Shown here: positions 501 to 24,862 of the stretch, in pieces | How the letters are laid out: the number at the start of each line of letters is the position of its first letter | Position numbering within the stretch: position 1 is the first letter of the stretch | Source: Candidatus Moraniibacteriota bacterium | Lineage (GTDB): Bacteria; Patescibacteriota; Minisyncoccia; Moranbacterales; UBA1568 | Length of the DNA: 64,000 nucleotides | Direction of reading: 5' to 3' | NCBI GenBank assembly: GCA_049287005.1 | Contig: JBAQEZ010000003.1 | Location: forward strand, 605,670-669,669 | Program-made: the position numbers and the translations under genes | The notes under the pieces: generated by a model | The model's database searches: none | The model's input: only the letters and a program-made list of their open reading frames with translations | What the model was told of the DNA's origin: nothing

Positions 501-809
501 ACTAAATATACAGAAAAAATAAAAAGATCCTTTCTTTTTTATAAAAATTTTAAAAAAAGAACAGTCGAGGAAATGAAGCGAGGGGTGATACATAGATGTA
601 CTAGAAATTATTCAGAAAGCCGCATACGCGATTATACGCATTCGTTTTGAAGGAAAGAAGAAGTGTTTTGATGTATAAATATTGAATAGCGTATATCCAG
701 CCTTATGGGATATATTGAAATGTCGCATAAGTTACATTAGGAGACGCGTAGTATTAAATCTTAGTTGTTTGTTCTCTCAAGAACAATCGCTTACCCCCTA
801 CAGATTTAG

Positions 810-1448
810 TTATTGGATTATTGGATTTGAGTAACTTTCCTTTTTATTAATAATATACTGTAGTTCGTCTAACGATACAACCCTTACATTAATTGGTAGA
901 CCCTTCTTCTTGTTAGACATAAGACGGTCAATGTCACTTTGAGAAAAAGACAAGTTTGAAACCACAAAATATAATTCTTCTTTGAAATTTCTATATTTAT
1001 CAATTTTGACGTTCACATTCCCCTGTAAAGAGCGAGCAGAATCCGTAGAGAAGACATCAATTCCAAAATTCCCACTAGGTGAATAGATATAGAAATCTAC
1101 TCTGTTTTTTAAGTCACAAAAAATTTTTTCAGTATGGACAAAAACCTCATGAAATTTTTGTTTTAATACTACTTCTAATTCTGTTTCACTTAGTCTACCT
1201 CTAGTATTTACTCTCTTCGAGATTTCTGTTCTATACAATCCTTTTCCAAAATGAGTTTCAGTATATCCCAATTGACTGCGTAATTTTTCAATTCCTCCAA
1301 ATTTTCTTTGAATTTGTCGAGCTGAAGGTAAATAGTTAAGTTTATCGATTTCATCAACCCTAGGTAGTCTTTTATTTTCTTTCAGAAAACGTTGAAAACC
1401 AACAGCTATTTCTTCGGCGCTCCATTCTGGACCAGATCTTTTGCTCAT
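810..1448 (-). CDS. hypothetical protein (AT-rich; abuts the 3' end of the long tRNA)
   Basis: A 212-aa ORF with low GC and no family motif that I recognise. Confidence 0.45.
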   Translation of the reverse strand: MSKRSGPEWSAEEIAVGFQRFLKENKRLPRVDEIDKLNYLPSARQIQRKFGGIEKLRSQLGYTETHFGKGLYRTEISKRVNTRGRLSETELEVVLKQKFHEVFVHTEKIFCDLKNRVDFYIYSPSGNFGIDVFSTDSARSLQGNVNVKIDKYRNFKEELYFVVSNLSFSQSDIDRLMSNKKKGLPINVRVVSLDELQYIINKKESYSNPIIQ

Positions 1449-1561
1449 ATTTGTTATATTGACAATTCTGTTTCTATATGCTATAAATATATGTTGTAAA
1501 TGTATTTAATTTCTGGTATATTTACACTATATTTAAGAAGCTCCTTAAATCCTGAAAATAA

Positions 1562-1676
1562 GCTCCCGGCTAGGAATCGAACCTGCGACTCGTCACGCCA
1601 GTCCCCCCAAAAGAGATCCGGCAGTAGAGAACCATGGTTTGTCAGACCAGTGCCTTAACCACTAGGCAACGGGAGC
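1562..1676 (-). tRNA. tRNA-like gene, about 115 nt; candidate tRNA-Val(GAC) carrying an insertion or intron of about 40 nt
   Basis: The reverse-complement reads GCTCCCG-TT-GCCTAGTGGTTAAGGC-A-CTGGT-CTGACAA-ACCAT...GCAGG-TTCGATT-CCT(A)GC-CGGGAGC. The acceptor stem is 7/7 complementary, the D-loop and T-loop are canonical, and the anticodon loop CTGACAA (anticodon GAC) is well formed. About 40 nt lie between the anticodon arm and the T arm, and the T stem needs one bulge. Confidence 0.55.
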
Positions 1677-1703: not shown

Positions 1704-2255
1704 TCATTTCTTGTCAGGTGCAACTTTCAAAGAATTAAGAATTCCAGTTACTATTGCAATTTCACTTTCAGTGATATCACGCGGGACTTCAATGAGAAAT
1801 TTCGCATCAGCTCTTAAGGCAAGTTCAATACGATGAATATCAGGTGCTGATATTTTTGGTAATGATCCACTGCTGTCGGGGCCCTTGGAAACCGCCGCCT
1901 CTCGTTGTTCCATAACGGATCTCTTTTTGCGAATTATAGGCTTTGAGGGTGTCCAACTCGCCATTTTTGTAAGATCCACTCCATACTTTTCAAAATCGGC
2001 TAAGACCTTTGCTACACGCGATTTATAAGTAGCCAAAGAACCAGAAGTAAAAGTGCTGTTTTTTGAACATACGGTCGCATAGATATGTGGGAGATTAGCT
2101 TTGAAAAGGCTAACTGACTCACGCTCTTCTTCCCGTAGCTCTTTTTCAAACAGTCGGAGAGCAACTGTATAAGCTCTTGCTGTTCCTGGCTGATATTTAC
2201 GACTCTTTTCCGCTCTATCAATAAAAGCGTAGAGATCTTGAAATTTTGCTGTCAT
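1704..2255 (-). CDS. hypothetical protein
   Basis: A 183-aa ORF on the 5' side of the tRNA with no family motif that I recognise. Confidence 0.4.
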   Translation of the reverse strand: MTAKFQDLYAFIDRAEKSRKYQPGTARAYTVALRLFEKELREEERESVSLFKANLPHIYATVCSKNSTFTSGSLATYKSRVAKVLADFEKYGVDLTKMASWTPSKPIIRKKRSVMEQREAAVSKGPDSSGSLPKISAPDIHRIELALRADAKFLIEVPRDITESEIAIVTGILNSLKVAPDKK

Positions 2256-2423
2256 AGTTTTATCTCTAAAAATTAAAATCTAGTCTGTGCAGAAATAATA
2301 ACTGATAAGTTGAATCCTGTCAAGCCAATCAACTTTTGACTCAACTTTATTAATTATTTTGCTTATAATAAAGCAAAATAATTATATTTTACTGTAAAGA
2401 CAATGTGTTATAATTTTGAACAT

Positions 2424-4843: not shown

Positions 4844-6502
4844 TTACCAGTTTCTGACGAACGAGCTAGAAAGAACCAAAAAAGATCCCAAAAGTCCCAG
4901 CGCGGGAATGAAGAAGCCCTGCAGGGTGTCCCGATTGTCGCCAGGACCGGCTCCCACATTGGGAAGACCAGGAACAGAAACAGTGACTTTCGCCGTATCG
5001 GTATCTTTCACTTCTTCACCATTGGCGGTTCCTTTCGCGGTAACAGTGTTGGTTTCAGTTTTTCTCACTGTTTTTTTACAGGTATATTTCCATTCTTCAT
5101 CCGTATCAAGCAAATCATTGCTATTGTCATCGCCAGAAACATATTTTACAGAATCACATGTATCATCTTTGACCGACACGTCACTGAGCGTAACATCACC
5201 TCGATTGGTTACTTTGTAGGTGAAAGTGACTTTTTCAGGGCCTGAGCGCAAGACCGTCTTACTCGCTTCTTTTGTTACCCTGATATCGACGCTCGCTTCA
5301 TCGCTCACCGCCTGTGCGATATCATTGTCCGTGATGGTACATACCGTTGATTGCCCGAGACCAAGAGTAATTTGGCTGCTGCCATTGACAGTAATACCGT
5401 TCGTACAACTCCAAGAGGAAGCTGTGTAGCCAGTCAGACCGGTTGATTCGGAAAGAGTATACGTTCCCTGATCAAATGAGGCGCCGCTTACCACGTCAAT
5501 AGAGCCAGCTGCCCCAGCACCGGACAATGTTGTCGGACCGGTTGCCGTGAGCGTCCACGCCGTTTCGAGAGCGGTGCCAGCATTATCATTCACGACAACT
5601 TTATCAAGTGTCAGGGATGGTGCGATGTCATTATTATTTATAGTACACACTGTCGTCTGGCCAGAACCAAGAGTAATCTGGCTACTCGTTACAACAATGC
5701 CGTTCGTACAGGTCCATAATCCTGCAGTGTAATCAGAGTGTGTTATTTCTGAAAGAGTATATGTACCAGCAGTGACAGTGGCACCGGTAACCGGTCCTGT
5801 ACCGCTAACACCTGTGATGGTCGTTGTACCTGTGGCAGTTAACTGAAAGTCTGCCAAAGGCCTCGTACCACCATTGTCATTGGTGATTGTTTTCACCAAT
5901 GTGAGTGTGGCTGCCGCAGCCGTAACGGTGATTGTCGGTGAACCAGCGAGAAGAGCATGAACAGGACCAGGATCCCCGGCATCAGCGGTACTGACCGTCA
6001 GAGCTGTTGCTCCCATGGCTACTGCAGATGTTCCTTTATAAGTAAGAGTGATTATATTATTGAACGCGCAATCTGCCGTTATATCAACGGTAATTACTTG
6101 TCCGCTGGCGACCGTTATCGATGAGGCCGGATCCGAACTAACCGTGCAGCCACCGGTTCCGCTGCCCGCAGCTGCTACAACAGACCACTTACCATCAGCG
6201 TCCACATCGTTTGTAGTAGCGACAGCATGGAGAGTTGGCGCAGTAAAACCAGTCGGAATAGTAAAGGTTGGACTAGCCGCACCGAGAGTCATTCCGCTTG
6301 AATTAATCGTCAAGACGGTTGTAAATATATGTGAGGTTGATTGTACGACGGTCACTCCTGCACCTTGAGCACCACCATCTTTTGCAATCGTCGCCGTACC
6401 TCCACCGGTTGCTGCCAAAACTTTCGGCACCGAAGAAGCAAAACCACCAGCTAAAACGAGCGTGACGATTACAATAAAACTTAATTTTTTGATATTTTTC
6501 AT
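4844..6502 (-). CDS. secreted repetitive surface protein with an LPNVG sortase sorting signal
   Basis: Signal peptide, Thr/Gly/Ala-rich repeats (...CTINNNDIA..., ...CTITDNDIA...), then LPNVG plus a hydrophobic stretch and a charged tail at the C-terminus. Confidence 0.7.
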   Translation of the reverse strand: MKNIKKLSFIVIVTLVLAGGFASSVPKVLAATGGGTATIAKDGGAQGAGVTVVQSTSHIFTTVLTINSSGMTLGAASPTFTIPTGFTAPTLHAVATTNDVDADGKWSVVAAAGSGTGGCTVSSDPASSITVASGQVITVDITADCAFNNIITLTYKGTSAVAMGATALTVSTADAGDPGPVHALLAGSPTITVTAAAATLTLVKTITNDNGGTRPLADFQLTATGTTTITGVSGTGPVTGATVTAGTYTLSEITHSDYTAGLWTCTNGIVVTSSQITLGSGQTTVCTINNNDIAPSLTLDKVVVNDNAGTALETAWTLTATGPTTLSGAGAAGSIDVVSGASFDQGTYTLSESTGLTGYTASSWSCTNGITVNGSSQITLGLGQSTVCTITDNDIAQAVSDEASVDIRVTKEASKTVLRSGPEKVTFTYKVTNRGDVTLSDVSVKDDTCDSVKYVSGDDNSNDLLDTDEEWKYTCKKTVRKTETNTVTAKGTANGEEVKDTDTAKVTVSVPGLPNVGAGPGDNRDTLQGFFIPALGLLGSFLVLSSSFVRNW

Positions 6503-24610: not shown

Positions 24611-24692
24611 CTGAAGTTCCTTAAAAAGCCATAATAATAGTACAATATTGCCTAAACTCGTAGCAATACGAGCATGGCTCAATAGTAGAAAC

Positions 24693-24740
24693 CTACGTCA
24701 ATAAAAACGGTCTTCCGACCGGCACTTATTGACGTAGGTC
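24693..24740. repeat. 48-bp imperfect palindrome with 13-bp perfect arms (CCTACGTCAATAA ... TTATTGACGTAGG)
   Basis: Lies 80 bp after the recombinase stop codon. A third copy of CCTACGTCAA sits at 24848. It is a candidate att site or a terminator. Confidence 0.45.
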
Positions 24741-24862
24741 GATATCTCGAAAGAGATATCGGGCGGTTTCGAAAGGAATCGTCTGCTTGGTCGGAGGACC
24801 ATTTTTGTACCTTAAAAATCAAATAGCTCATTTCTCAATTAATTAAATCCTACGTCAAAAAT

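Follow-up and report, generated by a model that had tools for sequence, protein, structure and literature searches.

The stretch of DNA considered here, referred to below as the window, comprises 64,000 nucleotides (nt) of contig JBAQEZ010000003.1 from a metagenome-assembled genome (MAG) of Candidatus Moraniibacteriota, a member of the Patescibacteria or candidate phyla radiation (CPR). Close to its start, on the minus strand, lies a gene of 116 nt that resembles a valine transfer RNA (tRNA) with the anticodon GAC. This tRNA-Val-like gene extends over window positions 1561–1676, so that position p of its RNA corresponds to window coordinate 1677-p. Read along the minus strand, the locus consists of a promoter-like site, an open reading frame (ORF) of 183 amino acids (aa), a gap of 27 nt, the tRNA-Val-like gene and an ORF of 212 aa. 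The G+C content falls to about 30–40% over positions 400–2400, versus about 50% elsewhere in the window. A preliminary description of the region had proposed a tRNA-like gene at 1562–1676. The gene is real, although its full extent includes position 1561, and the motifs then quoted are present; they belong to the minus strand, a point on which that description was silent.

The cloverleaf and its defects

The tRNA family of Rfam, RF00005, matches the gene from end to end (window 1676 to 1561, model positions 1–71 of 71) with 42.4 bits against a gathering score of 29. The E value is 1.3e-5 in a search of the 64-kb window and 4.2e-7 in a local search. In this alignment four arms are accommodated and a single long insertion separates the anticodon arm from the T arm. 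ARAGORN, by comparison, makes no call at the gene under default settings. When parts of the middle segment were deleted in silico, a call of tRNA-Val(gac) at the default threshold was obtained for 125 of the 156 variants, each with a different combination of boundaries; this indicates that the length of the variable region is the only obstacle to detection by this program; the bulge and the mismatch described below are insufficient to sink the cloverleaf. When introns were allowed, a check suggested in the preliminary description, ARAGORN offered only a tRNA-Pro(GGG) with a 34-nt intron at 33/34, and this only at an 80% threshold. This low-scoring alternative is contrived, needs two G·U pairs, ignores the better anticodon arm and was rejected.

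The gene is 100% identical in the NCBI MAG contig JBAQNY010000037.1 (GCA_049304235.1) and in a Logan run assembly (L001), and the identity of the two extends into flanks of several kilobases. An error peculiar to one assembly can thus be dismissed. Another Logan contig (L002) shows full identity along 1.7 kb and stops 5 nt upstream of the gene. These independent assemblies make it extremely unlikely that a chimera has joined two tRNA fragments, a possibility that draws on two facts: every copy stems from a metagenome assembly, and RNA positions 75–87 (ACUGGCGUGACGA), read from the sequence, resemble positions 26–38 (ACUGGUCUGACAA) at 10 of 13 positions. By our own estimate a likeness of this degree is expected by chance at the depth of the search. 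The idea of a partial internal duplication involving the same two segments was dropped on the same ground, the match being judged compatible with chance.

The arms of the cloverleaf can be followed both in the sequence and in the Rfam alignment, and the acceptor stem, D arm and T loop are as recognisable as had been claimed. The 5' strand of the acceptor stem, GCUCCCG (RNA 1–7, window 1670–1676), forms seven of seven pairs with window 1562–1568; the 3' strand, CGGGAGC, and the discriminator U at window 1561, both read from the sequence, together occupy 1561–1568. The D arm, GCCU-AGUGGUUA-AGGC (RNA 10–25, window 1652–1667), is delimited by the Rfam alignment and has a perfect stem of 4 bp. The anticodon arm, CUGGU-CUGACAA-ACCAU (RNA 27–43, window 1634–1650), presents the anticodon GAC at window 1641–1643 in a loop that has U33 and A37. 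Beyond the variable region follows the T arm, GCAGG-UUCGAUU-CCU(A)GC (RNA 91–108, window 1569–1586).

Several features depart from those of a canonical tRNA, in which a regular minihelix of 7 acceptor and 5 T-stem pairs is combined with an anticodon stem in which every position is paired. In the T stem, GCAGG/CCU(A)GC, one A, at window 1571, bulges out, and Rfam aligns it as an inserted 'a' in the 3' strand. The anticodon stem has four Watson–Crick pairs and a C27·U43 mismatch, flagged 'v' by Rfam; the anticodon arm that had been called good for Val(GAC) deserves this epithet for its loop and four pairs, but not for the fifth. The discriminator is U73 and is followed by UAU, with no encoded CCA, whereas both resident tRNAs of the window, Thr(CGU) and Gln(CUG), have CCA encoded. 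In Escherichia coli the identity set of valyl-tRNA synthetase (ValRS) consists of A35 and C36 in the anticodon and the discriminator A73. Judged by these rules, which may differ in Patescibacteria, the gene possesses the valine anticodon GAC and carries U in place of A73.

The expanded variable region

The variable region comprises 47 nt (RNA 44–90, window 1587–1633, minus strand), against 5 nt in a class I loop. The excess of about 42 nt, counted between U43 and the T stem, is close to the 40 or so extra nucleotides reported in the preliminary description; the palindromes mentioned there, AACCAUGGUU and GACU...AGUC, are both present. By prediction the segment can pair into an irregular arm, about 20 bp long, that includes six G·U pairs and four bulges of 1 nt. 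Taken alone, the extra segment folds at -15.0 to -15.8 kcal/mol, and shuffled sequences are nearly as stable (z = -0.8 to -1.0). Its antisense strand folds at only -6.1 kcal/mol, versus -15.0 in the sense direction. The arm thus owes its pairing to G·U pairs of the tRNA-sense strand, and the segment is no palindrome at the DNA level. A mobile hairpin akin to repetitive extragenic palindromic (REP) elements or miniature inverted-repeat transposable elements (MITEs) was considered as the source of the insert and discarded in view of this weak antisense folding and of the absence of a second copy of the segment from the 64-kb window and from the fetched loci.

In the class II tRNAs (Leu, Ser, Tyr and Sec), too, the cloverleaf has a fifth, helical arm, placed after the anticodon arm and before the T arm. 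Class II variable loops reach about 24 nt, and a canonical variable region measures 4–5 nt in class I and about 10–24 nt in class II. At 47 nt and with four bulges, the arm of the tRNA-Val-like gene is about twice the natural maximum and unlike that of class II. Its D arm, GCCUAGUGGUUAAGGC, is one base off the GCCGAGUGGUUAAGGC type of tRNA-Ser. The remainder of the gene departs from class II as well: such tRNAs have a Ser, Leu, Tyr or Sec anticodon and G73 or A73, whereas GAC is a class I anticodon and the discriminator here is U73. In the literature the class II variable loop is described as having '10 or more' nucleotides (PMC7609411).

A further comparison concerns the allo-tRNAs and selC*-type tRNAs described by Mukai et al. 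(PMC5389517). These are rare tRNAs scattered among bacteria and phages and found only by relaxed searches, and they combine long variable arms with anticodons of unexpected isotypes, as does the tRNA-Val-like gene. Their geometry, on the other hand, is 8/4 or 9/3 in the acceptor and T stems, with long D and anticodon stems (PMC5389517); for allo-tRNA or Sec-like tRNAs as a whole 8/4, 9/3 and 8/5 are reported (PMC5389517, PMC7609411). The tRNA-Val-like gene has a 7/5 geometry that includes a bulge, and extension of the acceptor stem to eight pairs would create the mismatch U8·C108, which places the gene outside the allo-tRNA and Sec-like geometries.

A different explanation for the oversized region is that the transcript loses 42–47 nt, either as a non-canonical intron or through a cut by RNase III, so that a tRNA-Val of canonical size or a split tRNA-Val results. 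Once RNA positions 45–86 are deleted, the variable loop, G-AGUC, is indeed of textbook form, and ARAGORN accepts the resulting tRNA of 74 nt. Moreover, Patescibacteria are unusually rich in tRNA introns, and their intron-bearing tRNA genes, from the same phylum, are likewise missed by standard tRNA finders because of inserted sequence (Nakagawa et al. 2026, PMC13011429). The introns reported there are group I introns that match group I covariance models, self-splice and reside in the anticodon loop, at positions 33/34 to 36/37 with 35/36 enriched (PMC13011429). The insert of 42–47 nt discussed here lies instead in the variable region and matches no intron model of Rfam; indeed, apart from tRNA, no Rfam family is matched between window positions 400 and 2500 up to E = 5. 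An intron of the bulge-helix-bulge type, which entails two 3-nt bulges around a 4-bp helix at the exon–intron junctions, is not supported, as the predicted arm has only 1-nt bulges. Bacteria are not known to possess a splicing endonuclease, and cleavage by RNase III would leave the halves unligated. Removal of the insert thus appears very unlikely, and the intron option raised in the preliminary description is left unsupported.

Neighbourhood, relatives and mobile-element tRNAs

The 183-aa ORF (window 1704–2255, minus strand) ends 27 nt upstream of the tRNA-Val-like gene. Its homologue family identifies an N-terminal SAM-like domain of integrases, with no catalytic domain: 6 of the 24 homologues match Phage_int_SAM_1, at a best E value of 8.2e-5. 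In other genomes members of the family adjoin (large) serine recombinases, an MmeI-type restriction-modification gene and a Prim-Pol gene and, to judge from this gene content, the context of the family is that of a mobile element. No relative of the family was detected in IMG/VR. Upstream of the ORF a sigma-70-like promoter match, TTGACA-17-TATTAT, agrees with the consensus at 11 of 12 positions (window 2295–2323, minus strand). This site is the only candidate driver of the tRNA-Val-like gene. Such sites are no commoner in the region than in shuffled sequences, so the match is to be taken only as a lead.

The position of the gene so soon after the stop codon of the 183-aa ORF, with no promoter-like site of its own, raises the possibility of a role outside decoding. 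The tRNA-like element might be a module at the 3' end of the 183-aa ORF transcript, for processing by RNase P and RNase Z or for stabilisation, or it might be an att site left over from the element by which the ORF was introduced, an idea with which the integrase core-binding-like domain of the ORF is in keeping. A 16-nt segment of the T arm also matches the resident tRNA-Gln at 15 of 16 positions, yet most of this match falls within the universally conserved T loop. The ORF lacks an integrase catalytic domain, the window contains no direct repeat of the 3' end of the tRNA (its 23-mer recurs nowhere in the 64 kb when up to three mismatches are allowed), and in the five other loci examined that hold members of the 183-aa family no tRNA-like gene adjoins the ORF. 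A non-decoding element is consequently judged unlikely.

On the downstream side lies the 212-aa ORF (window 810–1448, minus strand), whose product combines an N-terminus resembling a homing-endonuclease-associated repeat (HEAR) with a PD-(D/E)XK nuclease-like domain. It has more than 200 homologues in Patescibacteria, and weak matches to HNH_repeat, the homing-endonuclease-associated repeat, were obtained for 12 of 42 family members. In an AlphaFold model with a predicted local distance difference test (pLDDT) score of 82.9, the C-terminal domain matches the nuclease domains of Can2, PspGI, Ecl18kI and R.BspD6I in Foldseek. A role of this neighbour as a tRNA-splicing enzyme was rejected: the restriction-type fold is unrelated to splicing endonucleases, and relatives have the gene with no tRNA beside it. 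A conserved partnership with either flanking gene was also looked for, at the loci of three homologues of the 212-aa protein and of four further members of the 183-aa family, which amount to five distinct loci; no tRNA-like gene occupies the equivalent position at any of them. The protein is therefore regarded as a bystander.

The 212-aa gene is present or absent at the same locus among contigs that encode an identical hydrolase (L023 versus L024 and L025), a pattern that hints at a nuclease gene of a selfish or dispensable kind. Two intergenic blocks of the window (609–663 and 713–746), located between this gene and that of the hydrolase, are conserved at the DNA level in relatives, with 80–93% identity. 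Their partners lie at 5954–6006 in L023, L024 and L025, at 6075–6102 in L019 and at 2608–2641 in L021, where a 41-aa ORF is called; a small gene or RNA may be located there. An 11-nt repeat, AAGCAAAATAA, at 411–421 and 2371–2381 was examined as the boundary of an island and rejected, as the conserved blocks and the syntenic 212-aa gene lie inside it. Two further observations concern other RNAs. A LOOT RNA (Rfam RF03000) is found at window 24649–24783 on the plus strand, with 60.6 bits against a gathering score of 46.4. In a Parcubacteria relative (L004, 2978–3215) a tRNA-Glu(UUC) is followed about 140 nt further on by a sequence that repeats part of its 3' end (ggtcgagtcccgtagggttacc); this repeat, beside a 188-aa and a 212-aa gene, has the appearance of an att-type duplication.

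Through homologues of the neighbouring hydrolase, which are about 55% identical to it, five syntenic loci were reached in related, Moraniibacteriota-like genomes. All share the order glutamyl-tRNA synthetase (GluRS), Peptidase_M23, hydrolase, spacer, GGDEF protein and PD-(D/E)XK nuclease. The spacer between the hydrolase and the GGDEF gene contains in turn nothing that is called, a 41-aa ORF, a 96-aa ORF or a 211-aa homologue, and its content differs even among contigs that encode an identical hydrolase protein. None of the five spacers holds a tRNA detectable with ARAGORN or with Rfam at the gathering score, those of L023 and L024 show no tRNA remnant at E <= 2, and comparison with the related loci at the DNA level reveals no counterpart of window 1561–1676. 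The spacer, which differs from genome to genome and in no relative contains a tRNA, is thus a genuine hotspot of variability. The setting of an integration hotspot, as it had been portrayed, survives in the hypervariable spacer of low G+C content and in the integrase SAM-like ORF. It does not extend to the tRNA: an attB or attL site would entail a tRNA conserved at the locus and a direct repeat at the far end, and neither is found. The absence of tRNAs from the spacers of relatives and of a repeat of the 3' end indicates that the tRNA-Val-like gene is variable cargo and not a conserved target of integration.

Homologues of the gene itself were sought with a pattern for the 5' half of the tRNA, defined by U8, G10, the D loop AGUGGUUAA, C25 and the loop CUGACAA. 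Across 185,579 species genomes, one for each species, this pattern gave no match and then two chance matches outside tRNAs, and in the JGI (Joint Genome Institute) metagenomes it gave one chance match that is no tRNA. IMG/VR contains no match to the 5'-half pattern, to the exact 5' end, to the exact 3' end or to a long-gap pattern, and a blastn search of phage genomes with the gene found no homologue. In the light of these scans the gene does not derive by recent disruption from any of the housekeeping tRNA-Val genes sampled; with no homologue at hand, neither conservation nor covariation is demonstrable. One of the loci fetched through a chance match of the 5'-half pattern (L012, 1188–1260, minus strand, 'Candidatus Acheromyda pituitae') contains a tRNA with the anticodon UUA, which would read the stop codon UAA.

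Although no homologue is evident, parts of the gene find parallels among the tRNAs of phages. Taken by itself, the D arm (GCCUAGUGGUUAAGGCA) is shared with 69 viral contigs of IMG/VR, where it belongs to tRNAs of His, Asp, Ile, Thr, Gly and Asn. On the same contigs, long extra arms are present in phage tRNAs of class I isotypes, namely Ile-UAU, Asn, Gly, His, Arg, Cys and Glu; these measure 84–94 nt in total, a range limited by the tool, and amount to 16 unique sequences among 591 unique tRNAs (L026–L094; for example L092, 14087–14172). A looser long-gap scan of viral contigs uncovered tRNA-like genes of 100–116 nt in which the acceptor stem is perfect and neither the D arm nor the T arm is unusual; ARAGORN calls these genes only with 'introns'. 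They are located on L098 (8601–8670), L100 and L105; on L101 (13653–13722); on L103 (800–885), where the acceptor stem has 8 bp; and on L107 (5431–5512) and L112, where a variable region of about 42 nt contains a second T-arm-like hairpin (GGACGTTCGATTCGTCT). Taken together, the shared D arm and the viral cases of 84–94 and 100–116 nt indicate that the gene most resembles divergent tRNAs of mobile elements, with an extreme expansion of the arm. The resemblance is bounded: none of the viral genes is a sequence homologue, none is a Val(GAC), and their stems are mostly clean, whereas the tRNA-Val-like gene has a bulged T stem and a mismatch.

Two other viral loci are of note. On a 411-kb viral contig (L074, 1259–1380, minus strand) a tRNA match of 29.2 bits retains an intact Gln(UUG) anticodon arm, behind which about 64 nt are inserted. 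On L044, at about 1980–2055 on the minus strand, a related motif (CAGGTTTGTTACTCAGGTATCC) follows the 5' half of a Tyr(GUA) tRNA.

Probably a decaying accessory tRNA, possibly a functional one

The reading that we hold with moderate confidence is that of an orphan tRNA-Val-type gene associated with mobile DNA, with an expanded variable region, which is probably transcribed together with the upstream ORF and yields a poor or dead tRNA. Most likely it is a dispensable, decaying accessory tRNA, in effect a pseudogene; and most likely it is neither the housekeeping tRNA-Val, nor an intron-containing tRNA, nor a conserved new class. In such a history the gene would have arrived with, or arisen beside, a fragment of a mobile element of which the 183-aa ORF would be the remnant, and the hypervariable spacer of low G+C content that holds it would be horizontally acquired DNA. 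Transcription would probably proceed from the 2323–2295 site, with the tRNA-Val-like gene forming the 3' part of the transcript of the 183-aa ORF, and in silico the RNA can adopt a five-arm cloverleaf. With a bulge in its T stem, the C27·U43 mismatch, U73 as discriminator, an arm of excessive size and no encoded CCA, it would be at best a poor substrate for processing, for ValRS and for EF-Tu, and these defects point most likely to an accessory tRNA in decay. As far as sequence features can guide the choice, the stem defects, U73 and missing CCA, together with the lack of a homologue, incline us towards a pseudogene or accessory gene over a long-arm tRNA.

A number of observations weigh against this interpretation. 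The core of the tRNA is intact, with perfect acceptor and D stems and with U8, A14, G18G19, A21, U33 and A37 in place; the positions G53–T loop–C61 and a possible G15–C48 pair are also present. The five-arm cloverleaf, at -42.1 kcal/mol, is isoenergetic with the unconstrained minimum free energy (MFE) structure, at -42.2 kcal/mol. An arm that forms on the sense strand only is what would be expected of a structure at the RNA level; the G/U-rich composition explains it equally well. The long-arm phage tRNAs of class I isotypes and the viral genes of 100–116 nt imply that expanded arms in mobile elements are not necessarily dead. In the genes of the host, GUC and GUU account for 53% of the valine codons. 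Finally, the NCBI locus tags of the flanking ORFs are WAV46_04055 and WAV46_04045, and the skipped number suggests that the annotation pipeline probably called a feature, WAV46_04050, at this place.

Many of these points would equally suit a working accessory tRNA-Val(GAC) of mobile-element type that carries a giant variable arm of about 20 bp and is charged and used in translation; the arm might then serve as a handle for a protein or in the evasion of tRNA-targeting nucleases. The intact core, the isoenergetic cloverleaf, the sense-specific arm, the upstream promoter-like site and the phage tRNAs with long arms, Ile(UAU), Asn, Gly and His among them, as well as the phage genes of 100–116 nt, are consistent with such a tRNA. 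So is the tolerance of translation in E. coli for small hairpins in variable arms (PMC7590224). A synthetic parallel is provided by the engineered 'V-Spinach' and aptamer-tagged tRNAs, normal but for a hairpin, tens of nucleotides in length, that has been introduced into the variable loop or arm (PMC7590224). Among these, only small hairpins on an allo-tRNA chassis worked well; engineered E. coli tRNAs with a large aptamer in the variable loop kept only marginal activity, which speaks against a working tRNA (PMC7590224, introduction). Further evidence against a working tRNA comes from the bulged A within the acceptor/T minihelix, the mismatch in the anticodon stem, and the absence of an encoded CCA, in which the gene differs from the resident tRNAs. 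To these are added the failure to find a homologue in the genome, metagenome and viral scans, and an arm no more stable than its shuffled versions. The discriminator U73 stands where the E. coli identity rules lead one to expect A73. Modelling leaves the five-arm fold feasible and without sign of selection, and a working tRNA with a giant arm is doubtful. A bolder proposition is rather unlikely: that the gene represents one of an unrecognised set of mobile-element or phage genes of 100–116 nt and gives rise to a working Val(GAC) tRNA of class I isotype, either with its arm of 47 nt or after excision of the insert by an unrecognised bacterial pathway.

Should the RNA nevertheless be made, CCA-tailed and charged, it would widen the range of structures known from natural tRNAs and would offer synthetic biology a natural template for large handles on the variable arm. 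In that case a systematic hunt for tRNA-like genes of 100–116 nt, several of which were met incidentally on phage contigs, would be justified. The gene also calls for caution in annotation, as it is missed by ARAGORN, whereas tools based on covariance models will call a tRNA-Val. If it is a decaying accessory tRNA, which we consider most likely, its importance is small, and it would be one more case in which mobile DNA scatters aberrant tRNA genes in the reduced genomes of the CPR.

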